A DNA stretch of 64,000 nt from Oscillospiraceae bacterium (GCA_015067925.1 SVLN01000003.1:36058-100057); one strand, 5' to 3'; shown: positions 8,485 through 21,417, counted from the stretch's first letter. The notes: generated by a model not told the origin, from the letters alone. A program made the numbers and translations.

Positions 8485-8546
8485 TGAATCAAGGTGTTGT
8501 TTCGTCAAGCCGAAACAACCAACAGCCCGCCGGGCTGTTGGGATTT

Positions 8547-8560
8547 TAGTTCGAGTCCCT
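8547..8560 (+). repeat. Inverted partial copy of the tRNA-Arg T-arm/acceptor segment
   Basis: GTTCGAGTCCCTTC equals tRNA-sense positions 53-66 but lies on the opposite strand. Its last 10 nt (8551-8560) pair with 8475-8484, enclosing two internal hairpins. Confidence 0.65.
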
Positions 8561-8567
8561 TCTAAAC

Positions 8568-8605
8568 AAAAAAAGATTCATTATCCCAGACGGGATAATG
8601 AATCT
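8568..8605 (-). terminator. Rho-independent terminator of tRNA-Arg
   Basis: On the minus strand, AGATTCATTATCCC-gtct-GGGATAATGAATCT is followed by TTTTTTTG, immediately after the CCA end. Confidence 0.75.
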
Positions 8606-8606
8606 T

Positions 8607-8682
8607 TGGCACGCCGGAAGGGACTCGAACCCCCAACCCTCAGAACCGGAATCTGATGCTCTATCCATTGAGCCACCGGCGC
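8607..8682 (-). tRNA. tRNA-Arg (anticodon CCG), CCA encoded
   Basis: A manual cloverleaf fold gives 76 nt. Acceptor GCGCCGG/CCGGCGT, D arm GCTC/GAGC, anticodon stem TCAGA/TCTGA, loop TTCCGGT, T arm GGGGG-TTCGAGT-CCCTT, discriminator G plus CCA. Contains G1.U72 and two G.U pairs in the T stem. Confidence 0.85.
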
Positions 8683-8697
8683 AAATCAGCGTGATTG

Positions 8698-8726
8698 ATT
8701 ATACCAAAATCCGCCGGTAATATCAA
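8698..8726 (-). promoter_or_regulatory. Consensus sigma-A promoter of tRNA-Arg
   Basis: On the minus strand, TTGATA, 17 nt spacer, TATAAT. The -10 ends 15 nt before tRNA position 1. Confidence 0.7.
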
Positions 8727-8829
8727 GACCAAATCCGCAAAAGCCCCCAACAAAGATACGCCTGCATTCGAGGAAAACTGACATTCCATGCATGCTAATA
8801 TAATCATAACAACACAAAGGAGAATTCCC

Positions 8830-9174
8830 ATGACTTATCAGAAGCGCTTTTCTCTGACCGAGAAGAGATTCACCACCGCACAGGCAAATCCCCCTGCCGA
8901 GCATTTTGCCGTGCAGATCACCCTCACCGGCGAAGAGGCCGGCATCTTCTACATTGCCAACACCCAGCGCGGCTTTGAGGTCGCTCCCTATGACTATCAC
9001 GATCACACCGCTCACCTCACCATCAGCGGCGATGACCTGGTGAAGTTCCTGGGCGGCAGACTGAATCTTGAGCGCGCCCTGGAATCTGGCAAGGTTTCCA
9101 TCTCCGGCAATCCCGACCACATCCGCCTGCTGGCGCAGATCGTGGACGCCCCCGCTTCCCGCAGCAAGAAGTAA
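8830..9174 (+). CDS. SCP2 (sterol-carrier-like) domain protein
   Basis: 114 aa. C-terminal ...LVKFLGGRLNLERALESGKVSISGNPDHIRLL matches the SCP2 pattern. ATG 8830 has AAGGAG upstream, so the ORF-track start at 8788 is rejected. Confidence 0.7.
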   Translation: MTYQKRFSLTEKRFTTAQANPPAEHFAVQITLTGEEAGIFYIANTQRGFEVAPYDYHDHTAHLTISGDDLVKFLGGRLNLERALESGKVSISGNPDHIRLLAQIVDAPASRSKK

Positions 9175-9180
9175 ACAGAA

Positions 9181-9208
9181 CGGACCACCTGATGGTGGTC
9201 CGTTTTTT
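9181..9208. terminator. Bidirectional terminator
   Basis: CGGACCACC-tgat-GGTGGTCCG followed by TTTTTT. Lies between convergent genes. Confidence 0.7.
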
Positions 9209-10586
9209 ATTCAATGAGGCCCTTTTGCATTGCCTGAGACAGAACCGATGCCAGTTCTGCACGACTCGCCGCCTGGGCAGGCCTGATATTCCGGTCCGTA
9301 CGGCGCAGCAGATAATTGTCCGTCATCCAGGCAAAAGCGGTCTTTGCATAGGTCGGAATCTCGGAAGCATCCGCGTAGATGCCCAGGTAGGCTGACGAAT
9401 TGGGCTCGCCGGCATACCGCCAGATGATGGTCGCCATTTCCTGCCGGCTCAGAATCGCATGCGGGGCAAAGAGCGTTTGCGACACACCGTAAACCAATCC
9501 CTCTGACGAGGCCCAGGCAACTGCCTCACTATACCAATCATCCGGCTTCACATCCTCAAACGCCGTTCCTGTTTTGACCGCAGGTCTGCCTGCCAGGTTA
9601 TAAAGCACCTGCACGATCATAGCACGGGAAACGGCGACTTCAGGTGAGAATTGACGCTCTGCCGTACCGGTGAAAAGCTTCTTTGATACCGCATAGCGCA
9701 CATGGGGATAATACCATGCCCCAGGAACCAAATCATCATAGGGCAGCAGTTCACCCGTCACCGACACAACACAGCTGGCGCTCTTGCCATGGATTCCCTT
9801 GGCAGTAATCAGTGCAGAGCCTTCGGAAAGCGCAGTGATATTGCCGGACTGGTCCACAACAGCGACCTCCTCGTTGTTGCTGTACCAGAACACCATCGCA
9901 TCGCTGGGCGAGCGGAAAGCAATCACTTTTGCAGTATCTCCCGCTGTAAGGGAAACAACACCCTTACCCAACCGCAGCGACTGAATCTCCGCCAGATTCC
10001 AGGGGTTCCCTTCCGCCGGATCCGTCGGATCCCAGCCGTTGTACATCTGCAACGTGATCTCGTCCACAACCTTGTCCGGTTTGCCCAGGGGACCGGGATC
10101 GTCCGGATCATCATAGATCGTCACAGGCGTTCCGGCGGGACAGTTGTCAAAGATCCATTTGGCGTCCATCGTCTGCAGACGCACACAGCCCATGGAGGCC
10201 GCGTTGCCCAGGTTATTGTAGGCCTCGCGGACCATGGCATCGTGGGAATCATCGGCATAACAGACGGAGTGAAACAGAAAGTTTCCGTAAAAACAGGTAG
10301 CGTATTGTCCGTATGTACCGTCCAGCATCAGCCGCCATTCCGAGCGGTAGTCAATCAGGTAGAAGGTACCCAACGGCGTTTCGCAGCCTTCTCTGCCTGT
10401 GGAGCAGATCATCGCTTTGATCGGCTTGGTATACTGTCCGTTCTCGTCCGATTCATAAATCGTAACGGTATTGCATGCGCGATTGACTTTAATGGCATAA
10501 GGCTGCCGGGTATTCTTGGCAGCGGAAACCATACCGGTCAGCATGGCAAGAATCAACAAGAAAGAGAACAGGCGTCGTTTTTTCAT
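9207..10586 (-). CDS. Secreted L,D-transpeptidase (YkuD) with Big_2-like and three SLH domains
   Basis: Signal peptide MKKRRLFSFLLILAMLTGMVSA. YkuD catalytic region FHSV...ASMGCVRL. An Ig-like Big_2 segment. Three SLH-like repeats at the C-terminus. GGAGG lies 7 nt upstream of ATG 10586. Confidence 0.85.
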   Translation of the reverse strand: MKKRRLFSFLLILAMLTGMVSAAKNTRQPYAIKVNRACNTVTIYESDENGQYTKPIKAMICSTGREGCETPLGTFYLIDYRSEWRLMLDGTYGQYATCFYGNFLFHSVCYADDSHDAMVREAYNNLGNAASMGCVRLQTMDAKWIFDNCPAGTPVTIYDDPDDPGPLGKPDKVVDEITLQMYNGWDPTDPAEGNPWNLAEIQSLRLGKGVVSLTAGDTAKVIAFRSPSDAMVFWYSNNEEVAVVDQSGNITALSEGSALITAKGIHGKSASCVVSVTGELLPYDDLVPGAWYYPHVRYAVSKKLFTGTAERQFSPEVAVSRAMIVQVLYNLAGRPAVKTGTAFEDVKPDDWYSEAVAWASSEGLVYGVSQTLFAPHAILSRQEMATIIWRYAGEPNSSAYLGIYADASEIPTYAKTAFAWMTDNYLLRRTDRNIRPAQAASRAELASVLSQAMQKGLIE

Positions 10587-10615
10587 GGCCCTTCCTCCAG
10601 AATAGTCATGCAATC

Positions 10616-10644
10616 ATTATACACCAGCACGCCGCATAGTGCAA
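10616..10644 (-). promoter_or_regulatory. Sigma-A type promoter for the L,D-transpeptidase gene
   Basis: On the minus strand, TTGCAC, 17 nt spacer, TATAAT, preceded by TGgTG. Confidence 0.5.
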
Positions 10645-10671
10645 GATACCAGGTTTTTCCATGATTTTGCA

Positions 10672-10707
10672 AAAAAAGCGCTGCAGAGTGATCTGCAGCG
10701 CTTTTTT
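10672..10707 (-). terminator. Rho-independent terminator of the lysis cassette
   Basis: On the minus strand, AAAAAAGCGCTGCAGA-tcac-TCTGCAGCGCTTTTTTT, directly after the endolysin stop codon. Confidence 0.75.
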
Positions 10708-10711
10708 CTTA

Positions 10712-11344
10712 TTATTTGTTTTCTTTGAACAGCGCGTGGAGAATCACAGCAACCGCTTCCCGGGTAATGGGTGCCTGCCACCCATAATTTCCCTGACCAT
10801 CGCCATTGAAGATTCCGTTCTTCTTCGCCCATTCTGTAGCTTCTTTTGCCCAGGACGAGGGCGAATCGCCGGTGCCTTCTACACGCATCAATTCTTCTTT
10901 GGTCATCTCCAACTCATCTCCCATTGGCGTCAGATACAGCTTTCGTTCCTCCATCCGTCTGCGCAGCAAACCTTCGCGGTAGGCTTCCGAGGATGAAGCG
11001 GTGTAGGCTGTGATGTGCTCCGGAATCTGTTCGGCCGTTCTTCCGGAAACTAGCTGCTGCAGGCTTCCCGGCCCGCAATTGTAGGTAAAGCATACCAGAG
11101 CATCGAATTGATTCTGGTTCAGAGAAAAAGGCGTATACTGCGTAACCCAGGCTTCAAACTGTGTTAAATCCTTTCGGAGCAGCTGCTCTGCCTCATCCCG
11201 GGAGATCCTCATATCCGGTGCGACATCCTGCCCGTAGTGGCCATATCCGATGGTGTAGAATGCCTCTGACGGCAGTCGATATGCCTGCAGCAGGAGCCCT
11301 TCAAACCGTTTGATCAGTGCAATACCCTTTTCACTGGTTTTCAT
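10712..11344 (-). CDS. Phage-type lysozyme (GH24-like endolysin) with C-terminal SLH-like wall-binding repeat
   Basis: N-terminus SEKGIALIKRFEGLLLQAYRLPSEAFYTIGYGHYG (T4/lambda lysozyme family pattern). C-terminus SSWAKEATEWAKKNGIFNGDG...ITREAVAVILHALF is SLH-like. AGGAGAAGGAGA precedes ATG 11344. Confidence 0.8.
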   Translation of the reverse strand: MKTSEKGIALIKRFEGLLLQAYRLPSEAFYTIGYGHYGQDVAPDMRISRDEAEQLLRKDLTQFEAWVTQYTPFSLNQNQFDALVCFTYNCGPGSLQQLVSGRTAEQIPEHITAYTASSSEAYREGLLRRRMEERKLYLTPMGDELEMTKEELMRVEGTGDSPSSWAKEATEWAKKNGIFNGDGQGNYGWQAPITREAVAVILHALFKENK

Positions 11345-11582
11345 TCTCCTTCTCCTTTTCCTGTTTGAGAAGAGCCTGCAGCTTCTCGTTGCGTGCACAG
11401 ATATCGATTTTTCCCTCTGTTACAATGTATGTAACAAGGCTCACCAAAGTCACAACCGCACCACAGGCTGTGTTTGCAGTTTCTTCGTCCAGCCCAAAAA
11501 TCAATGCCAGGCCTGTGATTGTTCCAAGGATTGCGGCCCAGAGCTTTCTGCTGGCCAGCTTATTGAGAATTCTTTTCATCAT
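11331..11582 (-). CDS. Putative phage holin (two TM segments)
   Basis: 83 aa with two hydrophobic segments and a charged KE-rich tail. It overlaps the endolysin start by 14 nt, the classic holin-endolysin arrangement. Confidence 0.6.
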   Translation of the reverse strand: MMKRILNKLASRKLWAAILGTITGLALIFGLDEETANTACGAVVTLVSLVTYIVTEGKIDICARNEKLQALLKQEKEKENENQ

Positions 11583-11592
11583 ACGTTTCCTT

Positions 11593-11904
11593 TCACGTTC
11601 CAAGCAAACCGGACAGCATCGCTGTCAGCACCGCCCCCAGGCCCGTTGCAGCCACGCCGAAGGCCACACGCTCAATCATCTTATCCCAGTTTTTTCCGGG
11701 ACGCGCCTTGAGTTCTGCAATGCTTGCTTCAATCTGATGGATGGTCTGCGTCTGCATCTGCTGCTCGTGGGCCATGACAGCCACCGCTTCTGTGAGCTTA
11801 TGCAGCAGCTGCATCGAGTCCTCCAGCTTATCGATTCGATGGCCGTTGGATTTGCTGCGGCTTTCCACCTCCGTCAGCTTGATTACCATTTCATCCGTTG
11901 TCAT
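11593..11904 (-). CDS. XhlA-like (haemolysin XhlA family) lysis accessory protein
   Basis: 103 aa. N-terminal coiled-coil-like region and a single C-terminal TM (VAFGVAATGLGAVLTAMLSGLL). It sits immediately upstream of the holin, as in B. subtilis PBSX xhlA-xhlB-xlyA. Confidence 0.6.
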   Translation of the reverse strand: MTTDEMVIKLTEVESRSKSNGHRIDKLEDSMQLLHKLTEAVAVMAHEQQMQTQTIHQIEASIAELKARPGKNWDKMIERVAFGVAATGLGAVLTAMLSGLLGT

Positions 11905-11943
11905 TTGCTTCTGCTTCCATCCGGGTCATCCCTTTGACTGCCA

Positions 11944-12516
11944 TTATTTCACGCCCCAGACAGTGACCTGCACACCGGCCGGAACATAGTTCACACAGTA
12001 CAGATCCAGGGTGTTGACCTGAGCCAAGGTGATATTGGAGTTCCAGCCATGGTAGCTGCGGCCGCCGATCTGCGAGCGGCACTCCACAGAAACGCAGCCG
12101 GTCTCATGGCAGTCAGAAAAGAACGTGACTCTGCCGCGGAATCCAAGGATATCGCCCAGGCCGTTGCAGTAGGTTGTCATTACCGTCGGGTTCGTGGGCG
12201 GAACCATGTGGCTTCCGTAGTTTTCATCCGGCATGGATCGATCCTGATTGATGTACACCGTGGCAGGACTCTGACTCAGGCTGTCGTACCAAAACTCTAC
12301 CACAACTTCGTGATAATCCTTCCAGGGAACATTGGACAAATCGATGCTGACCATCGCTGCCTGCTGGGAAGTGACGAAGGTGGAAAGAGGCTTGTACACC
12401 AGATTCTGGTGCAGATGTTCCTCCAAAACTGAGAAATTGTGATTCATTTCCTCTCGGCTGACGGGGTCTGTTCCTTCCCATTGATACAGACCGTAGTGGG
12501 GTGATCTGGTTGACAT
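11944..12516 (-). CDS. Hypothetical phage-associated protein (positional analogue of PBSX XepA; function unknown)
   Basis: 190 aa. Strong ribosome-binding site, AGGAGG 8 nt upstream. No family recognised by eye. The N-terminus YGLYQWEGTDPVSREEMNHNFSVLEEHL is reminiscent of phage fibre or baseplate N-termini. Confidence 0.5.
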   Translation of the reverse strand: MSTRSPHYGLYQWEGTDPVSREEMNHNFSVLEEHLHQNLVYKPLSTFVTSQQAAMVSIDLSNVPWKDYHEVVVEFWYDSLSQSPATVYINQDRSMPDENYGSHMVPPTNPTVMTTYCNGLGDILGFRGRVTFFSDCHETGCVSVECRSQIGGRSYHGWNSNITLAQVNTLDLYCVNYVPAGVQVTVWGVK

Positions 12517-12714
12517 GTTTTGTTCCTCCTAAACAATGATAACAAACAGAAGTTCGTTTCATAAATAGGCGTAAAACGGCCGATTGTTGCCTATAAAAAG
12601 GCAACAAGGTGCAATTATTTGATTATTTGAATCGAAGACTCCTGCTGCCTCTCCATAGTCGATTTGCACAATTCCCAGCATCTGTTTTTGTACATTATCA
12701 CCAGTTGCATTTGG

Positions 12715-12743
12715 TTGACATCATTAACAAGTCATAGTAAAAT
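12715..12743 (+). promoter_or_regulatory. Near-consensus sigma-A promoter of the duplicated alpha/beta operon
   Basis: TTGACA, 17 nt spacer, TAAAAT. A homologous promoter precedes the third paralogue at 18978-19007. Confidence 0.6.
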
Positions 12744-12790
12744 ATATATGCAAACTATTTGTGAGTTTTTTATTCAACGCACTTACAAGA

Positions 12791-13675
12791 ATGGAGGTCA
12801 TACAATTGGCTAAAACCCAGAAACCCGGTATCCATCGTGGTGTATCCACCTACTGCTGGTACCCGCTGTACAACGTAAACATGGACCTGGAAGACAGCTT
12901 CCAGATCATGCAGGACATGGGCGCCACCGGCCTGGAAATCCTGGCTGACGGCATCATCGACGGCTATCCGTACCCCTCCAACGAGTGGCTGAACAAGTGG
13001 TTCGCCCTTGTTGACAAGTACGATATCGTTCCCGTCGAGTACGGTCATTGGGTTGAGTCCCGTCTGTACAGAGGCCGCGAGTGCACGCTGGAAGAGTCCC
13101 TGGAGCAGCTGATCCACGACATCAAGCTGGCTTCCTTCCTGGGCTTCACCTGCATGCGCACCAAGCTCGGCGTTATCGACGAGACCCTGTCCCCCGTCAA
13201 GAACTGGCGTGAGATCATCAAGGCTGCTCTTCCCTATGCTGAAAAGTATAATGTTATCATGCAGCCCGAGATCCACTCTCCCACCAAGCTGAAGAGCCCG
13301 ATGATGGACGACTACTGCGAGTTCATCGACAAGGAGCAGACCAAGCACTTCGGCTTCAACATCGACTTCGGCGTCTTCCAGACCAAGGGTGTCGACGGCA
13401 TGCCCAGCTTCCGTAAGTTCGATCCTTCCGCTCCGGAAGACATCGTTCCCCTGCTGCCCTATGTGTACTGCTGCCATGCCAAGTACTACAACATGTCCGA
13501 GGACTTCGAGGAGACCACCATCCCCTATCGTGAAGTCATTCAGCTCATGAAGGACAACAACTGGAACGGCTATCTGCTCTCTGAGTACGAAGGCCCCCAC
13601 AAGGAAAACATCTATCACTGCATGACTCAGGTGCATCGTCACCATGTCATGCTCAAGAACATTCTTGGCGAATAA
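12791..13675 (+). CDS. Xylose-isomerase-like TIM-barrel protein; putative alpha subunit of a C-glycoside-deglycosidase-like lyase (copy 1)
   Basis: 294 aa. Candidate metal-ligand pattern MQPEIHSP, NIDFGVF, CCHAKYY, LLSEYEGP. The alternative TTG start at 12806 has the better SD (GGAGG-N8-TTG). The ORF-track start at 12761 has no SD. Confidence 0.6.
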   Translation: MEVIQLAKTQKPGIHRGVSTYCWYPLYNVNMDLEDSFQIMQDMGATGLEILADGIIDGYPYPSNEWLNKWFALVDKYDIVPVEYGHWVESRLYRGRECTLEESLEQLIHDIKLASFLGFTCMRTKLGVIDETLSPVKNWREIIKAALPYAEKYNVIMQPEIHSPTKLKSPMMDDYCEFIDKEQTKHFGFNIDFGVFQTKGVDGMPSFRKFDPSAPEDIVPLLPYVYCCHAKYYNMSEDFEETTIPYREVIQLMKDNNWNGYLLSEYEGPHKENIYHCMTQVHRHHVMLKNILGE

Positions 13676-13689
13676 GGAGGGTAACGAAC

Positions 13690-14124
13690 ATGTTGGAAAT
13701 GGAAGCCCTGCAGTACAAGGGATTTCGTAATCTGTATAATGACGCCGGCGAAGCCATCGGTTTCCAGGTTGGCATCCGTTTTGTTGCCTACCGCGGTCCC
13801 TGGCTGAGCCAGTTCCGCTTCGACAACGTCACCGTCGACGGTGAGCGTTTCGGCGCTGACAAGTGCACCTTCGTCATCTCCGGTGTTGAGTACACCTACG
13901 ATGAGATGCTGAAGCTCGGCCGCGTGAAGTGGCCCCTGAAGGAAGCCATCATGATCCGTGTGCAGAAGCCCGGCGGCCTGGCCCAGGGCAATCACACCGT
14001 TTCTGCCCTGTATAAGGAAGTCGCTTCCTACGTCCCCGCCCGTATGGACGAGATCGATCCCGACCGCCCTGCGTTCGGTCACTCCGAAGCCACTGGCTTT
14101 ACCCGCGATTTCATCATCGTCTGA
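13690..14124 (+). CDS. DUF6379-like small protein; putative beta subunit of the deglycosidase-like complex (copy 1)
   Basis: 144 aa. AAGGAGGG lies 8 nt upstream and the gene starts 14 nt after the alpha stop. Pattern GFQVGIRFVAYRGPWLSQFRFDNVTVDGERF...KPGGLAQGNHTV matches my recollection of DUF6379/CarC/DgpB. Confidence 0.55.
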   Translation: MLEMEALQYKGFRNLYNDAGEAIGFQVGIRFVAYRGPWLSQFRFDNVTVDGERFGADKCTFVISGVEYTYDEMLKLGRVKWPLKEAIMIRVQKPGGLAQGNHTVSALYKEVASYVPARMDEIDPDRPAFGHSEATGFTRDFIIV

Positions 14125-14141
14125 TTTTCATAAAAACAAAC

Positions 14142-14170
14142 GTGCGGCACTGAGTCTCTCAGTGCCGCAC
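14142..14170 (+). other. Perfect 13-bp stem/3-nt loop hairpin at the duplication junction (no T tract)
   Basis: GTGCGGCACTGAG-tct-CTCAGTGCCGCAC, ending 7 nt before the copy-2 ATG and followed by aataagaATGGAGG. Confidence 0.7.
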
Positions 14171-14177
14171 AATAAGA

Positions 14178-15062
14178 ATGGAGGTTATCCAATTGGCTAA
14201 AACCCAGAAACCCGGTATCCATCGTGGTGTATCCACCTACTGCTGGTACCCGCTGTACAACGTAAACATGGACCTGGAAGACAGCTTCCAGATCATGCAG
14301 GACATGGGCGCCACCGGCCTGGAAATCCTGGCTGACGGCATCATCGACGGCTATCCGTATCCCTCTAACGAGTGGCTGGACAAGTGGTTTGCTCTGATCG
14401 ATCGTTACGACATCGTCCCCGTCGAGTACGGTCATTGGGTTGAGTCCCGTCTGTACAGAGGCCGTGAGTGCACGCTGGAAGAGTCCCTGGAGCAGCTGAT
14501 TCACGACATCAAGCTGGCCGGCTACCTCGGCTTCACCTGCATGCGTACCAAGCTCGGCGTTATCGATGAGACCCTGTCTCCCGTCAAGAACTGGCGCGAG
14601 ATCATCAAGGCTGCCCTGCCTTATGCCGAGAAGTACAACGTCGTAATGCAGCCCGAGATTCACTCTCCCACCAAGCTGAAGAGCCCGATGATGGACGACT
14701 ACTGCGAGTTCATCGACAAGGAGCAGACCAAGCACTTCGGCTTCAACATCGACTTCGGCGTGTTCCAGAACAAGAGCCTGGACGGCACTCCTCGTACCGG
14801 CCTGTTTGGTCCCTCCGCTCCGGAAGACATCGTTCCCCTGCTGCCCTACGTGCACTGCTGCCATGCCAAGTACTACAACATGTCTGAAGACTTCGACGAG
14901 ACCACCATCCCCTACCGTGAAGTCATCAAGCTGATGCAGGACAACGGCTGGAACGGCTATCTGCTCTCTGAGTACGAAGGCCCCCACAAGGAAAACATCT
15001 ATCACTGCATGACTCAGGTGCATCGTCACCATGTTATGCTCAAGAACATTCTTGGCGAATAA
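14178..15062 (+). CDS. Xylose-isomerase-like TIM-barrel protein; putative alpha subunit (copy 2)
   Basis: 294 aa. By my count it differs from copy 1 at 20 of 294 residues, 9 of them in one 15-residue loop. Confidence 0.6.
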   Translation: MEVIQLAKTQKPGIHRGVSTYCWYPLYNVNMDLEDSFQIMQDMGATGLEILADGIIDGYPYPSNEWLDKWFALIDRYDIVPVEYGHWVESRLYRGRECTLEESLEQLIHDIKLAGYLGFTCMRTKLGVIDETLSPVKNWREIIKAALPYAEKYNVVMQPEIHSPTKLKSPMMDDYCEFIDKEQTKHFGFNIDFGVFQNKSLDGTPRTGLFGPSAPEDIVPLLPYVHCCHAKYYNMSEDFDETTIPYREVIKLMQDNGWNGYLLSEYEGPHKENIYHCMTQVHRHHVMLKNILGE

Positions 15063-15076
15063 GGAGGGTAACAAAC

Positions 15077-15511
15077 ATGTTGGAAATGGAAGCCCTGCAG
15101 TACAAGGGATTTCGTAATCTGTATAATGACGCCGGCGAAGCCATCGGTTTCCAGGTTGGCATCCGTTTTGTTGCCTACCGTGGTCCCTGGCTGAGCCAGT
15201 TCCGCTTCGACAACGTCACCGTCGACGGTGAGCGTTTCGGCGCTGACAAGTGCACCTTCGTCATCTCCGGTGTTGAGTACACCTATGATGAGATGCTGAA
15301 GCTCGGCCGCGTGAAGTGGCCCCTGAAGGAAGCCATCATGATCCGTGTGCAGAAGCCCGGCGGCCTGGCCCAGGGTAATCACACCGTTTCTGCCCTGTAT
15401 AAGGAAGTTGCTTCCTACGTCCCCGCCCGTATGGATGAGATCGATCCCGATCGTCCTCCCATGGGCCATTCCGAAGCCACCGGCTTCACTCGCGATTTCA
15501 TCATCGTCTGA
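15077..15511 (+). CDS. DUF6379-like small protein; putative beta subunit (copy 2)
   Basis: 144 aa. Differs from copy 1 at 2 residues (AF to PM near the C-terminus). Same ribosome-binding site. Confidence 0.55.
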   Translation: MLEMEALQYKGFRNLYNDAGEAIGFQVGIRFVAYRGPWLSQFRFDNVTVDGERFGADKCTFVISGVEYTYDEMLKLGRVKWPLKEAIMIRVQKPGGLAQGNHTVSALYKEVASYVPARMDEIDPDRPPMGHSEATGFTRDFIIV

Positions 15512-15519
15512 TATCTTAA

Positions 15520-15556
15520 AAGCGGTGCAGTCAAACGACTGCACCGCTTCTTTTTT
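15520..15556 (+). terminator. Rho-independent terminator of the duplicated operon
   Basis: AAGCGGTGCAGTC-aaac-GACTGCACCGCTT followed by CTTTTTT. Confidence 0.8.
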
Positions 15557-15560
15557 AGGC

Positions 15561-15588
15561 AAAAAGCGCCCCAATTGGGGCGCTTTTC
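15561..15588 (-). terminator. Rho-independent terminator of the flavodiiron gene
   Basis: On the minus strand, AAAGCGCCCC-aatt-GGGGCGCTTTTT. Confidence 0.7.
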
Positions 15589-15596
15589 ATATTGGA

Positions 15597-17384
15597 TCAG
15601 ATCTTTTCAAAATCCGCAACACCATGCTTGCACAGCGGGCACACATAGTCATCCGGCAGGGTCTCGCCTTCATAGACGTAGCCACAGATCTTGCAAACGT
15701 AGCCGGTCTTGCCCTCGGTCTCGGGCTTGGGCTTGACGTTCTCCTGATAGTAGGTGTAGGTCATGGACGGTCTCTCAGAAAGCACTCTGGCCTCCGTCAC
15801 CGTGCAGATGAACAGACCGTGGGTGTCCAGATCCACATAGCTCTCCACTTGCAGAGACAGCATCGCATTGATGTATCTCGGCAGAACCACAAGGCCGTTG
15901 TCAGAGCGCATGGGAGTGCAGTCTGCGAACTTGTCCACGTTGCGGCCGCTGACAAAGCCAAAAGCTTCAAAAACTTTAAACGGAGCATCCTCCGTCAGGC
16001 AGTTGATGTTCATCTTTCCGGTCTGCTTAATCACGTGGTGGGAGTAGTTCTCCTTGTTGATGGCCACAGCAACGCGATTGGGTGTATTGGTAACCTGCGT
16101 CACCGTGTTGACGATCAAGCCATTATCCTTCTTGCCGTCGTTGGAGGTGACCACATACAAACCATAGCCGATGTTGAACAGAGCGGACATATCGTTCTTG
16201 TTGGCGGTGGAATCCTGGCGGGCCAGATACTCCATGCAGAGCTCAGAAGCCAGGGCATCAAGCTGTGCCGCGCTCTGCTCGTTGAGAGAAGAAAGAATCT
16301 TGACAGTATTCTCTGCAAAGGTGAGGTTCTTGCTCTTTTCGAACATGCCCTTCATGATCTTTGCTGCCATAGGCGCCCAGCTGCCGTTCTCAATCAGACC
16401 GACCGTACGGTTGGAGAAGTTGCGCTCGGTCAGATGATCGATGAACTCCCGCATAAAGGGGAAAATATCGGCGTTGTAGGTGGTGGTTGCCAACACGAGC
16501 TTGCTGTAGCGGAACGCATCGGCAACAGCGGCAGCAACGTCGCATCTGGCCAGATCATAAACAACAACCTTCGGGCAGCCGTTGGCCTTGAGCTTCTCTT
16601 CCAGCATCACAACTGCCTTCTTGGTGTTTCCATAGATGGAGGTGTAGGCAATCACAATACCCTCTTCCTCCGGCTGATAGCCGGACCAGGTGTTGTACAG
16701 GCCCAGATAGTAACCCAGATTCTCCTTCAGCACAGGACCGTGCAGCGGGCAGATCATGGAGATATCGAGGGTGGAGGCCTTCTTCAGAAGGTTCTGCACC
16801 TGCACGCCGTACTTGCCGACAATACCGATATAGTAGCGTCTTGCCTCATCAGCCCAGGGCTCATCCACATCCAGGGCGCCAAACTTGCCGAAGCCATCAG
16901 CGGAGAAGAGCACCTTATCCGTGGCATCATAGGTCACAATAACCTCCGGCCAGTGCACCATGGGAGCGGTAACAAAAACCAGATTGTGTTTACCCAGCGA
17001 CAGCGTGTCACCTTCACCAACCACGACTTGCTTCTCGGGGAAATCGGTACCAAAGAAGTTCTTCATCATGGCAAAGGCCTTGGCGGACGAGACGATCTGA
17101 GCCTCGGGATAAGCCTTGATGAAATTCACAATGTTGGCAGAATGGTCAGGCTCCATGTGCTGCACCACCAGGTAATCCGGCTTGCGGCCATTGAGGGTGT
17201 TCTGGATGTTATCCAGCCACTCGTGGGTGAAGCCGGCATCTACCGTATCCATAATGGCAATCTTTTCATCCATGATTGCATAGGAATTATAGCTCATGCC
17301 GTTGGGCACCACATACTGTCCCTCAAACAGGTCCACCTTATGGTCATTGACGCCAATGTAGCGAATATCGTTAGTAATGGTCAT
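15597..17384 (-). CDS. Multidomain flavodiiron protein: FDP core + flavin-reductase-like domain + rubredoxin
   Basis: Di-iron motif HMEPDH. Flavodoxin-like IVIAYTSIYGNTKKA. Flavin-reductase-like split-barrel segment (GLYVVTSNDGKKDNGLIVNTV). C-terminal rubredoxin CKICGYVY...CPLCKHG. ATG 17384 has AGAGGTG 6 nt upstream. Confidence 0.85.
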   Translation of the reverse strand: MTITNDIRYIGVNDHKVDLFEGQYVVPNGMSYNSYAIMDEKIAIMDTVDAGFTHEWLDNIQNTLNGRKPDYLVVQHMEPDHSANIVNFIKAYPEAQIVSSAKAFAMMKNFFGTDFPEKQVVVGEGDTLSLGKHNLVFVTAPMVHWPEVIVTYDATDKVLFSADGFGKFGALDVDEPWADEARRYYIGIVGKYGVQVQNLLKKASTLDISMICPLHGPVLKENLGYYLGLYNTWSGYQPEEEGIVIAYTSIYGNTKKAVVMLEEKLKANGCPKVVVYDLARCDVAAAVADAFRYSKLVLATTTYNADIFPFMREFIDHLTERNFSNRTVGLIENGSWAPMAAKIMKGMFEKSKNLTFAENTVKILSSLNEQSAAQLDALASELCMEYLARQDSTANKNDMSALFNIGYGLYVVTSNDGKKDNGLIVNTVTQVTNTPNRVAVAINKENYSHHVIKQTGKMNINCLTEDAPFKVFEAFGFVSGRNVDKFADCTPMRSDNGLVVLPRYINAMLSLQVESYVDLDTHGLFICTVTEARVLSERPSMTYTYYQENVKPKPETEGKTGYVCKICGYVYEGETLPDDYVCPLCKHGVADFEKI

Positions 17385-17458
17385 TTCATGCACCTCTTAT
17401 TTGCAAGTTGGATTGATTTTAACATGTTGAAAATTGAAAAGCAATGTGTCAATTGGAA

Positions 17459-18145
17459 TTATTCTAAAATTCTTCCGTCAGTGGAAATGGTAACCACCTG
17501 CCAGGGAATGAACTTGCCGCTGGCCTGAATGGCACGCTTGACGGCATTTTCCAGACCACCGCAGCAGGGCACTTCCATGCGCACAATCTTAACGCTTTTA
17601 ATGTTGTTGCCCGCAATGATACGGGTCAGTTTCTCAGCATAATCGCCTTCATCCAGCTTCGGGCAGCCAATCAGCGTGATATGATTGCGAATAAAATCGT
17701 TGTGGAAGTTTCCATACGCAAAAGCCGTGCAATCTGCGGCGATCAACAGATTGGCATTCTCAAAATACGGTGCGTTCACCGGAACCAATTTGATCTGGCA
17801 GGGCCACTGGGCCAGCTGGCTGGGCATCACACCAGGCATCTGCGCTGCGGGAGCTTCCGGCTTGATCTGCCGGGCCCGGGTTCCGGGACAGCTGAAAACC
17901 TGCTTTGCCGCTTGCTTGGCCTTCAGAACTGCCTTCTCATCGTAGGCGGGAGCCTCACGCTCCACAAAGGTGATGGCATCGGTGGGGCATGCAGGCAGGC
18001 AGTCGCCCAGACCGTCGCAGTAATCCTCGCGGGTCAATTTCGCTTTGCCATTGACCATCTCAATGGCACCTTCATGGCAGGCCGCTGCGCAAGCGCCGCA
18101 CCCGTTACACTTATCTTCATCAATCTGAATGATCTTTCTAACCAT
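17459..18145 (-). CDS. 4Fe-4S dicluster (ferredoxin) domain protein with conserved Cys-rich C-terminal domain
   Basis: N-terminus CNGCGACAAACHEGAI...CDGLGDCLPACPTDAI. C-terminus ...EVPCCGGLENA. Start moved to ATG 18145 (GGAGA 6 nt upstream). The ORF-track start at 18349 would run through the divergent promoter. Confidence 0.8.
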   Translation of the reverse strand: MVRKIIQIDEDKCNGCGACAAACHEGAIEMVNGKAKLTREDYCDGLGDCLPACPTDAITFVEREAPAYDEKAVLKAKQAAKQVFSCPGTRARQIKPEAPAAQMPGVMPSQLAQWPCQIKLVPVNAPYFENANLLIAADCTAFAYGNFHNDFIRNHITLIGCPKLDEGDYAEKLTRIIAGNNIKSVKIVRMEVPCCGGLENAVKRAIQASGKFIPWQVVTISTDGRILE

Positions 18146-18184
18146 TTTGATTCTCCGTTTCTTCTTCATTTGCCGTTGAGCGGC

Positions 18185-18213
18185 TTGTCTTTGTGGCATC
18201 ATTATAGTATAAT
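18185..18213 (+). promoter_or_regulatory. Sigma-A type promoter of the Crp/Fnr-family gene
   Basis: TTGTCT, 17 nt spacer, TATAAT, 43 nt upstream of the ATG at 18256. Confidence 0.5.
18201..18206 (-). promoter_or_regulatory. Candidate -10 box (TATAAT) of an activator-dependent promoter for the ferredoxin/FDP genes
   Basis: On the minus strand, a TATAAT with no good -35. It is back-to-back with the plus-strand TATAAT (ATTATAgTATAAT). The palindrome at 18228-18243 would be centred near -41.5. Confidence 0.35.
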
Positions 18214-18227
18214 GACCGCAGCAAGTC

Positions 18228-18243
18228 TGTTGAATTTTCAACA
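18228..18243. promoter_or_regulatory. Perfect 16-bp palindrome, candidate Crp/Fnr-family operator
   Basis: TGTTGAA-tt-TTCAACA, two 7-bp arms. It lies between the divergent ferredoxin/FDP genes and the regulator gene. Confidence 0.45.
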
Positions 18244-18255
18244 AAGGAGAAAGAA

Positions 18256-18915
18256 ATGGAGAAATTTTTTTCTGTTTTGCAGCACTGTCCCCTCTTTGAA
18301 AAAATCGGCGCTGATGACCTGAAGCTTCTACTTCCGTGTCTTGGCGCAAATATCATTGCCTTTGACAAAAAATACACGATCTTTGCCGAGGGCTCACCTG
18401 CCAAATATATCGGCATTCTGCTCTCAGGTTCTGCGCAGATTATCCAGGTCGATTATTATGGCAACCGAAGTATTGTCACCGAGGTGGTCCCCTCCGAGAT
18501 GTTCGGTGAATCCTTTGCCTGTGCGGACCTGGAAGTTTACCCCGTTTCTGTGATCGCCAATGAGCCTTGCGAAGTGATGTTGATTGATTGCAGCCGGATC
18601 ATGCACGCCTGTTCCTGCGCCTGTGGCTTCCATCAGCAAATGATTTTCAATTTGATGAAAAACATGGCACAGAAAAACATACATTTTCACCAGAAAGTAG
18701 ATATCCTTTCCCGCCACTCCACGCGGGAAAAGCTTCTGGCCTATCTGAATCTCTGTGCAAAGAGATTTAGCAGCAATCGTTTCGAAATTCCTTTTGATCG
18801 TCAGGAGCTGGCAGATTATCTGAAAGTGGATCGCAGCGGTTTGTCTGCCGAAATCGGCAAACTACGCAAAGAAGGAGTTCTTCAAAGCAACCGGAAACAG
18901 TTTGAACTCCTTTAG
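18256..18915 (+). CDS. Crp/Fnr-family transcriptional regulator with internal Cys cluster
   Basis: cNMP-binding-like beta-roll (FAEGSPAKYIGILLSGSAQI) and C-terminal HTH (RQELADYLKVDRSGLSAEIGKLRKEGVL). Cys cluster DCSRIMHACSCAC (C-x6-C-x-C-x-C). AAAGGAGA ribosome-binding site. Confidence 0.85.
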   Translation: MEKFFSVLQHCPLFEKIGADDLKLLLPCLGANIIAFDKKYTIFAEGSPAKYIGILLSGSAQIIQVDYYGNRSIVTEVVPSEMFGESFACADLEVYPVSVIANEPCEVMLIDCSRIMHACSCACGFHQQMIFNLMKNMAQKNIHFHQKVDILSRHSTREKLLAYLNLCAKRFSSNRFEIPFDRQELADYLKVDRSGLSAEIGKLRKEGVLQSNRKQFELL

Positions 18916-18977
18916 TTTTCGTCTTTTTGCACAGTTTTGATCCCATCTTTTTGTGAACTATGCCCATTTGATTTTTG

Positions 18978-19007
18978 TTGACATAGATAACAATCAGTCT
19001 GTAAAAT
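18978..19007 (+). promoter_or_regulatory. Near-consensus sigma-A promoter of the third alpha/beta pair
   Basis: TTGACA, 18 nt spacer, TAAAAT. The upstream 52 nt aligns without gaps to the copy-1 upstream region. Confidence 0.55.
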
Positions 19008-19042
19008 AAATACATCATTCATACAAACACAGCAAAAAACGA

Positions 19043-19945
19043 ATGGAGGTTTTTCAATTGGATAAGTCTAAAGCTCGTAAACCTGGCATTCACCGCGGCG
19101 TATCCACTTACTGCTGGTACCCCGAACTGAACTGGACCATGGACATGGAAGACATGTTCATGCATATGCAGGACATCGGTGCCAACGGTATTGAGATTCT
19201 GGCCGACGGTACCATTCAGGGTTATCCCAACCCCTCGAACGAGTGGCTCGACAAGTGGTTCGGCCTGACCGAAAAGTATGACATCGTTCCGGTGGAATAC
19301 GGTCACTGGGTTGAATCCCGCATGTATCGTGACCGCGACTACACCTCTGAAGAAGCGCTGGAGATGCTCATCCACGACATCAAGCTGGCCTCTTTCATGG
19401 GCTTCACCTGCATGCGCACCAAGCTGGGCGTCTGCACCGAGACTCTGGATCCCGTTCCCAACTGGAGAGAATTCATCAAGGCCGCTCTGCCTTATGCCGA
19501 GAAGTATGACATCGTCATGCAGCCCGAGGTTCACTCCCCCACCAAGCTCAAGGATCAGATGATCATGGATTACTGTGAATTCATCGATAAGGAGCAGACC
19601 AAGCACTTCGGCTTCAACATCGACTTCGGTGTGTTCCAGACCAAGCCCTTTGAGGATCCTTCCCGCGTCGGCGGCCGCCGTCGTCCCATGGATCCCAGCG
19701 CTCCGGAAGATATCATTCCGCTGCTGCCCTACATCTACGCCTGCCATGCCAAGTACTACAACATGGACGAGAACTTCGACGAGACCACCATCCCCTACGC
19801 CGAGGTTGTCAACATCATGAAGGAGCACGGCTGGAACGGCTGGCTGCTGTCTGAGTACGAAGGCCCGTACAAGAACGTTCCCGGCTACTCCACCACTCAG
19901 GTCAGACGCCATCATGTAATGCTCAAGAACCTGTTGGGCGAATAA
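19043..19945 (+). CDS. Xylose-isomerase-like TIM-barrel protein; putative alpha subunit (diverged copy 3)
   Basis: 300 aa, collinear with copies 1 and 2 and roughly two-thirds identical by eye. Same motifs (MQPEVHSP, NIDFGVF, ACHAKYY, LLSEYEGP). A longer Arg-rich insert sits in the variable loop (KPFEDPSRVGGRRRPMD). Confidence 0.6.
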   Translation: MEVFQLDKSKARKPGIHRGVSTYCWYPELNWTMDMEDMFMHMQDIGANGIEILADGTIQGYPNPSNEWLDKWFGLTEKYDIVPVEYGHWVESRMYRDRDYTSEEALEMLIHDIKLASFMGFTCMRTKLGVCTETLDPVPNWREFIKAALPYAEKYDIVMQPEVHSPTKLKDQMIMDYCEFIDKEQTKHFGFNIDFGVFQTKPFEDPSRVGGRRRPMDPSAPEDIIPLLPYIYACHAKYYNMDENFDETTIPYAEVVNIMKEHGWNGWLLSEYEGPYKNVPGYSTTQVRRHHVMLKNLLGE

Positions 19946-19964
19946 GACAAGGAGGTAATCGATC

Positions 19965-20387
19965 ATGCGTTTAGAAAGAGATGTTATTCAGCACAAAGGC
20001 TTCCGCAACCTGGTCGAGAACGGCGAGATTGTCGGCTTCCAGGTCTGCATCCGTCAGAAGGTCTATCGTGGCACCTGGCTGAGCCAGTTCCGTTTTGACC
20101 ATCTGGCCGTTGACGATGTGAAGTACGGTCCCGAGGACTGCACCTTCACCATCAGCGGCATTGAGTACACCTATGACGAAATGGCCAAGTATGACCGCGT
20201 GATGTGGCCCATCGAAGAGATGTGCTTCATCAAGGTCAAGAAGCCCGGCGGCCTGGCCACCGGCGCTCACAAGGTCCATGTCAATTGCTGGGAGATCCGC
20301 TCTTACCTGCCCGAGCGTATGGATACTGCCAACAAGGACACCAATGAAATCAACCCCGCTATGACCGCGGAACTGATTATTGTCTGA
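19965..20387 (+). CDS. DUF6379-like small protein; putative beta subunit (diverged copy 3)
   Basis: 140 aa. AAGGAGG lies 9 nt upstream. Conserved core GFQVCIRQKVYRGTWLSQFRFDHLAVDD...KPGGLATGAHKV. Confidence 0.55.
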   Translation: MRLERDVIQHKGFRNLVENGEIVGFQVCIRQKVYRGTWLSQFRFDHLAVDDVKYGPEDCTFTISGIEYTYDEMAKYDRVMWPIEEMCFIKVKKPGGLATGAHKVHVNCWEIRSYLPERMDTANKDTNEINPAMTAELIIV

Positions 20388-20402
20388 TTCTCATTGCACA
20401 TT

Positions 20403-20436
20403 GCAGCCCGTTCCCCCAGGGAAACGGGCTGCTTTT
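20403..20436 (+). terminator. Rho-independent terminator
   Basis: GCAGCCCGTT...AACGGGCTGC followed by TTTTGTTG. Confidence 0.7.
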
Positions 20437-20589
20437 GTTGTCCCGTACATCTATTTCAGAAACTCGGCCTTGTAATATTACACAAATTATAAGATTTTGT
20501 GTTTTTTCTTGTGATTTAAGCTTTGCTTTTTCGGAACAATATTGTATACTAGTCTTACAGTAAGCGTTTTATGCGCTGGAGGAGGCACC

Positions 20590-21417
20590 TTGCTCCGGAA
20601 GTTGTTTTTTTGTCTTCCTGCTCCCTTTCGCTTGTGCATTCAATTGTTTTATGACGCGTCAAAACAACACATCAGCGCCCACGCTGCAGGCATCTGTTTC
20701 TTTCTGCTGCTGGCGCTGTTTCCCATGGCAATTTTGACCTGCACGGTCCTGCGTGCTGTTGGGTTGACAGCGGCAGATCTTCTTTGCGCTCTGCGGCCTT
20801 TGCTCCCCTCTGCCCTGTATCCTTTGATAAAGCAGTTGACCGAAGGTTTTTTCGCAGCCCGTTCCGTCGGCGCGCTTTCCATGGCCGCCCTCCTGGCTTT
20901 GTGGTCCGCCTCTCGCGGAATCTACGGAATTATGCGAGCCTTAAATGCTGTGTGCAGGTTTGAAGACCGGCGCGGCTTTCTACGGCGCAGGCTGATTTGC
21001 CTTTTCTATCTGATTCTGACGCTTCTGGCCTTACCGGCTGCGCTTCTGGCTCATATGATGGGATATACACTCCTGTTGCGTGCAGGAAGGCTTTTTCCTT
21101 TGCTGCAGCATTTGGGAACGTTTCTTGTATTGGTACTGATCCATACGGGAATTTACTATGCGTTTCCCGCCAGAAAGCTTCGTCTTCGCTCGTGCCTTAT
21201 CGGCAGCACATTCTCCGCCCTCCTCTGGCAATTGTTCACTGCAGTTTTTTCCCTGTACGCCCAAGGCGCACAATCCTACTCTACTTTTTACGGAAGTCTC
21301 CGCTTCTGCGCACTGGGACTTCTCTGGCTATATTTCTGCACGATGATCCTCTTGTTTGGAGGCTGTCTTTCCGCAGAGATACACCATCGGCTCAAGAAGC
21401 CAAATACAAATATGTAA
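20590..21417 (+). CDS. YihY/BrkB-family membrane protein
   Basis: Multi-TM protein with HISAHAAGICFFLLLALFPMAIL-type N-terminus. The TTG at 20590 is preceded by GGAGGAGG, so it is preferred over the ORF-track TTG at 20542. Confidence 0.75.
   Translation: MLRKLFFCLPAPFRLCIQLFYDASKQHISAHAAGICFFLLLALFPMAILTCTVLRAVGLTAADLLCALRPLLPSALYPLIKQLTEGFFAARSVGALSMAALLALWSASRGIYGIMRALNAVCRFEDRRGFLRRRLICLFYLILTLLALPAALLAHMMGYTLLLRAGRLFPLLQHLGTFLVLVLIHTGIYYAFPARKLRLRSCLIGSTFSALLWQLFTAVFSLYAQGAQSYSTFYGSLRFCALGLLWLYFCTMILLFGGCLSAEIHHRLKKPNTNM

Follow-up and report, generated by a model that had tools for sequence, protein, structure and literature searches.

Three gene pairs for putative two-subunit C-glycoside deglycosidases of the short DfgA/DfgB type in an uncultured Oscillospiraceae bacterium

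A 64,000-nucleotide stretch of DNA from an Oscillospiraceae bacterium (GCA_015067925.1, SVLN01000003.1:36058-100057; hereafter, the window) contains three gene pairs related to the two-subunit C-glycoside deglycosidases (CGDs). Each pair consists of a gene for a large alpha protein followed by a gene for a small beta protein. A first-pass annotation of the sequence had proposed six open reading frames (ORFs) in three such pairs, and all six were found just as it had placed them. The proteins of the locus fall in the NCBI range MBE6954552-60, and belong to an uncultured Oscillospiraceae/Ruminococcaceae metagenome-assembled genome (MAG). The six genes are as follows.

alpha1, 12791-13675, plus strand: 294 aa, predicted CGD alpha subunit, lid-less TIM barrel of the short form (NCBI MBE6954552)
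beta1, 13690-14124, plus strand: 144 aa, predicted CGD beta subunit, with Tyr34 and Pro116 (PF19906, E 4.3e-26; NCBI MBE6954553)
alpha2, 14178-15062, plus strand: 294 aa, predicted CGD alpha subunit, no promoter of its own, 93.2% identical to alpha1
beta2, 15077-15511, plus strand: 144 aa, predicted CGD beta subunit (NCBI MBE6954555)
alpha3, 19043-19945, plus strand: 300 aa, predicted CGD alpha subunit
beta3, 19965-20387, plus strand: 140 aa, predicted CGD beta subunit, with Tyr34 and Pro116 (PF19906, E 1.5e-29; NCBI MBE6954560)

In all three pairs, the alpha gene directly neighbours the beta gene on the same strand. The spacers between them are 14, 14, and 19 nt long (pairs 1, 2, and 3, respectively) and each contains AAGGAGG, in agreement with the 14-19 nt spacers and the separate AAGGAGG before each small ORF described in the first pass; in pairs 1 and 2, this motif overlaps the alpha stop codon. 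The proposed paralogy of the three pairs also stands, far beyond chance. Pairs 1 and 2 lie in direct tandem, repeating every 1387 nt with 93-98% of their DNA identical, and the DNA identity of pair 3 to them is 70-82%. At the protein level, alpha1 and alpha2 are 93.2% identical and beta1 and beta2 98.6%; the identity of pair 3 to pairs 1 and 2 is 73% for alpha3 and 53% for beta3.

All three small proteins match the Pfam model PF19906 (E 4e-26 to 1.5e-29; 91-103 bits versus a cut-off of 27.6 bits), and their lengths lie within the range of CGD beta subunits, about 125-160 aa. This family, CGDB, is the "C-glycoside deglycosidase beta subunit", and was formerly DUF6379, the name that the first-pass annotation had correctly given to it. 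The three alpha proteins match PF01261 (AP_endonuc_2, the xylose-isomerase-like TIM barrel) with E-values of 1e-11 to 1e-12. NCBIfam offered no model for the alpha or the beta subunit. Against the PDB sequences, the alpha proteins matched eight sequences (E ≤ 0.01) and the beta proteins seven, including DfgB and DgpB; every one of these is a CGD subunit or a fused form. The best PDB match was DfgA/DfgB (7BVS). The alpha chain, 7bvs_A, was matched at E 4e-101 by alpha2 and at E 2e-96 by alpha3, and the beta chain, 7bvs_B, at E 1.3e-23 by beta2 and at E 8e-21 by beta3. The Pfam and PDB matches bear out the xylose-isomerase-like barrel that had been predicted for the large proteins.

A single-chain AlphaFold2 model of alpha2 (predicted local distance difference test, pLDDT, 84; predicted template modelling score, pTM, 0.85) was superposed on the published structure of 7bvs_A, and this model alone gave a template modelling (TM) score of 0.91-0.92 and a root-mean-square deviation of 2.0 Å. 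In a fold search with the model, the top 16 matches were CGD alpha subunits only (TM 0.79-0.91). The CGDs represented were DfgA, those of Microbacterium testaceum and Deinococcus aerius (8QRZ and 8QVC, respectively, by the fold-search descriptions), DgpC, and AgCarB2. Literature searches with the PDB codes 8QRZ, 8QVC, 8UN2, 8UMC, and 9M3A found nothing relevant. Sugar epimerases, isomerases, and single-subunit 3-keto-glucoside lyases appeared from rank 17 onward (TM 0.56-0.70), and the epimerases and isomerases share 10-17% identity with alpha2.

The residues responsible for metal binding and catalysis are conserved in all three copies. In AgCGD2, the Mn2+ ligands are Glu147, Asp179, His269, Lys271, and Glu305, and the catalytic residues are His149 and Glu307, equivalent to His143 and Glu301 in PuCGD; both sets are supported by mutagenesis (Mori et al., PMC8563793). 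Their counterparts were mapped by a HMMER alignment to PuCGD, in which the printed numbering reproduces H143 and E301, and by a MAFFT alignment with DfgA. The metal ligands are E160, D192, H229, K231, and E265 in alpha1 and alpha2, and E162, D194, H235, K237, and E271 in alpha3. The catalytic residues are H162 and E267 in alpha1 and alpha2, and H164 and E273 in alpha3. All seven are invariant across an 18-sequence alignment of the clade to which the window belongs (alpha at least 63% identical). The motifs that the first pass had quoted from the large protein are genuine, and PE-I-H, NID, CHAK, and SEYE are catalytic or metal residues.

Tyr39 of the PuCGE beta subunit is needed for C-C cleavage, and hardly for C-O cleavage (Bitter et al., PMC10628242). 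Tyr34 of beta1-3, within an invariant Y-R-G motif, aligns to this Tyr39 of DgpB/PuCGE. The pocket residues Leu128(alpha) and Pro115(beta) of EuCGD are kept in the window proteins. The four-helix lid of PuCGD (residues 183-251) has no counterpart in the window alpha proteins in the HMMER alignment. The small ORFs belong to the CGD beta family, and every metal ligand and catalytic residue is present. Because the published catalytic machinery is fully conserved in three copies, the earlier suggestion that the chemistry may differ from that of the described enzymes finds no support.

Among the known systems, EuCGD, the DfgA/DfgB of Eubacterium cellulosolvens (7BVS, 7DRE, 7EXB; PMC8563793), is the closest by both sequence and structure. 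It has in common with the window a lid-less alpha subunit of about 290 aa, the gene order alpha then beta, and the metal and catalytic residues. Its host, too, is an anaerobic member of the Clostridia from the gut environment of plant feeders. However, the EuCGD beta subunit has 160 aa versus 140-144 here, so that the window proteins are about 16-20 residues shorter overall; the alignment to DfgB ends at residue 132, and the C-terminal region of the EuCGD beta subunit helps to form the aglycone cavity. L127(alpha) of EuCGD is replaced by Thr. The dfgAB genes sit in the dfgABCDE cluster together with the oxidoreductase DfgE, whereas none of the three copies in the window has a linked oxidoreductase.

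PuCGD/PuCGE, the DgpB/DgpC of strain PUE (7BVR, 7EXZ, 7XRF), belongs to the same two-subunit family with a Mn2+ site, and the equivalents of its His143, Glu301, and beta Tyr39 are found in the window proteins. The alpha subunits are about 25-29% identical, and where PuCGD carries its lid, four helices spanning about 70 residues, a hypervariable loop of some 20 residues is present in the window proteins. The PuCGD gene order is beta then alpha, next to dgpA, in contrast to alpha then beta in the window. PuCGD is specific for C8-glucosides; its Tyr303(alpha), which excludes C6-glycosides, is Pro in the window proteins. The single-subunit lyases are more remote. AtOGE of A. tumefaciens (PMC10628242) and the 3-keto-beta-glucopyranoside-1,2-lyases AL1/BT1 (8TCD/8TCT) share with the window alpha proteins the TIM barrel, the Mn2+ site, the catalytic His for beta-elimination on 3-keto sugars, and the absence of a lid. 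However, they accept O-glycosides only, have no beta subunit, and show practically no sequence similarity (11-15% identity to alpha2, TM about 0.63-0.66).

The PF19906 matches, the PDB matches, and the conserved catalytic residues support the first-pass reading of three deglycosidase-like copies. As judged from their sequences, the three pairs are probably CGD isoforms of the DfgAB short form, and further members of a known family. We consider it likely that the three pairs specify isoforms of a 3-keto-C-glycoside lyase that is Mn2+-dependent, has two subunits, and conforms to the short, lid-less DfgA/DfgB type, and that they form two transcription units. By homology, the TIM barrel of the alpha subunit would bind the metal via Glu/Asp/His/Lys/Glu, and the 3-keto sugar would be placed on this metal. 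The conserved His (H162 or H164) would take the C2'' proton, with the Glu (E267 or E273) assisting. The beta subunit, in a predicted heteromer with alpha, would shut the aglycone pocket and contribute the Tyr that stabilizes the phenolate. The C-C bond would be broken by a beta-elimination-like step to generate the aglycone and 2-hydroxy-3-keto-glucal. The prior oxidation of the sugar at C3 would be catalyzed by a Gfo/Idh/MocA enzyme of the DgpA/DfgE type, presumably encoded elsewhere in the genome. The most likely substrates would be flavone or xanthone C-glucosides from plant feed.

The tandem copies were compared by the Nei-Gojobori method. Alpha1 and alpha2 have a synonymous divergence (dS) of 0.30 and a nonsynonymous divergence (dN) of 0.038, with a ratio (omega) of 0.13; for beta1 and beta2, which differ at residues 128-129 only (AF to PM), omega is 0.06. 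Both tandem copies are under purifying selection, and the dS of 0.30 together with the low omega indicates that the duplication is not recent and that both copies have been maintained. An independent metagenome contig (L014) matches the window at 100% identity over 12846-15228, across alpha1-beta1-spacer-alpha2-beta2. Since this contig spans the tandem junction, the duplication is real and not an assembly artefact. In other assemblies of this species, contigs are broken at the tandem repeat.

Nine of the 20 amino acid differences between alpha1 and alpha2 fall in residues 198-211, just past the Asp ligand (Fisher p = 7e-9). In this patch dS is 1.69, versus 0.26 elsewhere, and omega is 0.24. 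Positive selection on the loop, taken as residues 197-212, was considered and rejected, because dS is also very high; the patch is a mosaic of older or imported sequence. In the clade, this loop is the sole strongly hypervariable internal segment (entropy about 2.3 versus a mean of 0.75), and the only comparable variable alpha stretch is at N-terminal residues 5-11. An independent tandem in another genome likewise has the hotspot of divergence between its copies in this loop, which sits where the long-form enzymes carry their lid domain. The beta variability in the clade concentrates in the C-terminal tail, the site of the beta1/beta2 differences. Differences among the three isoforms concentrate in the alpha loop at the lid position and in the beta C-terminal tail, and their aglycone preferences are probably not the same.

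Recombination between the tandem copies is indicated by a contig from another strain (L002, JGI sample 3300018495). Positions 1-1285 of this contig were compared with window positions 12850-14135 and 14237-15521; its alpha is identical to alpha1, the 3' end of its beta is identical to that of beta2, and the chimeric pair adjoins the flavodiiron gene described below. Such an alpha1-type/beta2-tail chimera points to unequal crossing-over or gene conversion, and implies copy-number or sequence polymorphism at the tandem.

The promoter-like sites and hairpins around the gene pairs are listed below.

Promoter-like site P1, 12715-12743, plus strand: TTGACA-17-TAAAAT, 11/12 consensus positions, 48 nt before alpha1
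Promoter-like site P3, 18978-19007, plus strand: TTGACA-18-TAAAAT, 11/12, 36 nt before alpha3
Stem-loop in the beta1-alpha2 spacer, 14142-14170, plus strand: 13-bp stem, folding free energy (dG) -25.9 kcal/mol, z = -8.4, no U-tract on the plus strand
Predicted intrinsic terminator after beta2, 15520-15549, plus strand: 13-bp stem followed by CTTTTTT, dG -24.9, z = -7.5
Predicted intrinsic terminator after beta3, 20403-20432, plus strand: GC-rich stem followed by CUUUUGUUG, dG -24.7, z = -4.7

P1 and P3 are the two top promoter-like sites within 12400-20700. The strong consensus promoters from which the first pass had suggested high expression are therefore present, as promoter-like sites, at pairs 1 and 3, with 11/12 matches each, but not at pair 2; there are two sites and not three. 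Alpha2 has no promoter, and only the 53-nt spacer with the hairpin lies upstream of it. The 14142-14170 hairpin scores as terminator-like on the minus strand only, and is an intercistronic structure and not a clean terminator. Its candidate roles include RNA processing, stabilization, or a relic terminator. From these signals we infer two transcription units, in which alpha1-beta1-alpha2-beta2 and alpha3-beta3 may each be co-transcribed. About 100 nt around P1 aligns with the region around P3, and also with the DNA preceding the 85%-identical orthologue in survey locus L005, which suggests that the promoter was inherited with the genes. An Rfam scan of the window identified one tRNA only; neither a riboswitch nor a leader of a known type precedes the CGD operons.

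The other window neighbours include BrkB, the glycogen genes glgP, glgC, glgD, and glgA, and housekeeping genes. Between the two CGD operons (15597-18915) there are genes for a 598-aa fusion of flavodiiron protein, flavin reductase, and rubredoxin, for a 4Fe-4S protein (ferredoxin), and for a divergent Crp/Fnr-type regulator. This is probably an oxygen or nitrosative stress module. The first-pass annotation had seen no sugar regulator in the window. The Crp/Fnr-type gene (18256-18915) does lie directly upstream of pair 3, but it is not a sugar regulator. It was rejected as a pathway regulator; since it is divergent from the flavodiiron/ferredoxin pair, and is not conserved beside the gene pairs of relatives, it probably serves the oxidative-stress genes.

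On the other side, a phage lysis-cassette remnant (10712-12516, minus strand) abuts pair 1. It contains an SLH-domain endolysin (phrog_7, E 3.5e-39), an XhlA-like "hemolysin" (phrog_937), and two proteins of 90 and 190 aa of unassigned function. A tRNA-Arg(CCG) gene lies nearby (8607-8682, minus strand). The CGD tandem occupies the place expected for phage structural genes, and no other prophage genes follow. A phage origin of the CGD genes was rejected, as there are no further phage genes and the relatives lack the lysis-gene context. At 364-1668, unlinked to the CGD genes, lies a gene for an aldo/keto reductase that is extended at its C-terminus by a fused 4Fe-4S dicluster domain.

Several observations weigh against the assignment as 3-keto-C-glycoside lyases. 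The identity to the nearest characterized enzyme, DfgA/DfgB, is 52% for alpha and 37-39% for beta, and therefore the substrate specificity is not transferable. The first pass had reported no oxidoreductase or sugar transporter in the window, and the follow-up agreed. Pfam annotation of the genes, together with a custom Gfo/Idh/MocA hidden Markov model run on all six-frame ORFs, identified neither an oxidoreductase of the Gfo/Idh/MocA or GMC type nor a sugar transporter in the 64 kb. Neither was found within about 10 kb past either window end on same-species contigs. In addition, no Shine-Dalgarno sequence precedes any alpha cistron, whereas a perfect AAGGAGG precedes every beta cistron. The alpha upstream regions without it contain ACAAGAATG (12744-12790), AATAAGAATG (14125-14177), and AAACGAATG (19008-19042). 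The alpha gene of the 85%-identical orthologue in L005 also has none, and the alpha genes of L008 and L017 carry GGAGG.

The gene context was compared across 79 related loci from species-representative genomes, of which 13 form the clade of the window and 66 are distant relatives (alpha 50-59% identical). The nearest match among the GTDB species representatives is 85% identical. The relatives occur widely in Clostridia from the guts of sheep, goat, deer, rabbit, chicken, and human, and the beta gene follows alpha in 78 of the 79 loci. A Gfo/Idh/MocA gene lies within 3 kb in only 3/13 loci of the window clade versus 41/66 distant relatives, and in none of the four loci with an alpha identity of at least 74%. 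At least two beta genes per locus were found in 8/13 and 10/66 loci, respectively. The closest orthologues are isolated cassettes or alpha-beta-alpha-beta tandems. Thus, the missing linked oxidoreductase is common in the clade and not unusual.

Catenibacillus provides a precedent for both the multiple copies and the unlinked oxidoreductase. According to PMC11170127, these genomes each contain three to six dgpBC or dfgAB pairs, largely as dgpBC clusters, with dgpA-type genes elsewhere, as in the window. Catenibacillus belongs to the Lachnospiraceae and its pairs are mostly of the Dgp type, whereas the window host belongs to the Oscillospiraceae/Ruminococcaceae; a direct alpha-beta-alpha-beta tandem does not appear to be among the arrangements described there. 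Scattered DfgA homologues have also been detected in silico in human gut MAGs (PMC8398226).

One member of the clade lies in a cluster with Gfo/Idh/MocA genes. In the cultured isolate Lachnoclostridium sp. Marseille-P6806 (L024), a cluster at 8539-17205 has an alpha 71% identical to that of the window, and the gene order is Gfo/Idh/MocA, alpha, beta, acetyltransferase, beta, long-form alpha, two Gfo/Idh/MocA genes, and a TIM barrel. One of its three Gfo/Idh/MocA genes matches DgpA at E 4.5e-195. Through this DgpA orthologue, the window clade still appears to be tied to the C-glycoside pathway. The cluster combines a short-form alpha-beta pair with a Dgp-type beta-alpha pair, and the acetyltransferase is maltose-acetyltransferase-like. 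Its host would be a convenient organism for experiments. An extreme case of multiple copies is an array in Oscillospiraceae RGIG5648 from sheep duodenum (L017, 8578-16483), with four beta and three to four alpha-like genes in about 8 kb and no oxidoreductase. On another contig of the same MAG (L025), a further pair does have a Gfo/Idh/MocA gene beside it.

A different substrate range might be considered. The pairs may be generalist 3-keto-glycoside beta-eliminases, whose physiological substrates are mainly 3-keto-O-glycosides or other 3-keto sugars, possibly oxidized by other community members; we regard this as rather improbable. PuCGE cleaves both 3-keto-O- and 3-keto-C-glucosides, and a generalist role was proposed by its authors (PMC10628242). 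The window pairs without a linked oxidoreductase, the scarcity of one in the clade (3/13 versus 41/66 within 3 kb), and the identity of only 52% and 38% to the characterized enzymes are consistent with such a role. However, the dedicated O-glycoside eliminases AtOGE and AL1/BT1 are single-subunit, need no beta, and rank far lower in the fold search, whereas here the beta subunit and its C-C-specific Tyr are kept under strong purifying selection, and the clade member L024 is linked to a true DgpA. This alternative departs from a C-glycoside lyase in substrate range and not in mechanism.

The extra copies might also be redundant, decaying, or an assembly artefact, with one functional pair only. 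Pairs 1 and 2 are nearly identical, metagenome assemblers break at the repeat, and one strain has the alpha1-type/beta2-tail chimera. Nevertheless, L014 crosses the tandem junction at 100% identity, all ORFs are intact with all catalytic residues, and the alpha dS of 0.30 with an omega of 0.13 indicates long coexistence under constraint. Independent tandem or multi-copy arrays recur in other genomes (L016, L017, L018, L020, L028, L077, and L078). This reading is therefore very unlikely.

Least credible of all are the NCBI names ("sugar phosphate isomerase/epimerase" for the alpha subunits, "hypothetical protein" for beta1 and beta2, and "D-mannonate dehydratase" for beta3), by which the pairs would be sugar phosphate isomerases/epimerases with unrelated small ORFs: PF01261, the broad superfamily of the alpha proteins, does contain epimerases, but these enter only from rank 17 (TM 0.56-0.70 versus 0.79-0.91 for CGD alpha subunits), the small proteins have their matches in PF19906 and in solved CGD beta chains, with none that is dehydratase-like, and the CGD-specific Lys ligand and beta Tyr are conserved. 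The CGD genes are systematically under-annotated in public records, and beta3 is mis-annotated.

With the two-subunit 3-keto-C-glycoside lyase as the preferred assignment, a broader and more speculative picture of the clade may be drawn, although we think it unlikely to hold. The clade might represent a distinct CGD subfamily of "nomadic lyase cassettes", a promoter-alpha-beta-terminator module uncoupled from the oxidoreductase and repeatedly amplified, in tandem or scattered, with most of the divergence between copies in the beta tail and in the alpha loop that takes the place of the lid. If so, one organism would gain an array of aglycone specificities, and the lyases would be supplied by one unlinked broad dehydrogenase, or by 3-keto-glycosides that bacteria nearby release.

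Grasses, cereals, and medicinal plants are rich in C-glycosyl flavones and xanthones, which resist ordinary glycosidases. The aglycone available to the host is controlled by gut bacteria that cleave these C-glycosides. The locus leaves the understanding of the CGD enzyme family unchanged; it extends the list of likely C-deglycosylating bacteria by an uncultured Oscillospiraceae/Ruminococcaceae lineage that has three isoforms. The tandem pair, nearly identical save mostly for one pocket loop, is a natural experiment on aglycone specificity in the lid-less enzymes.

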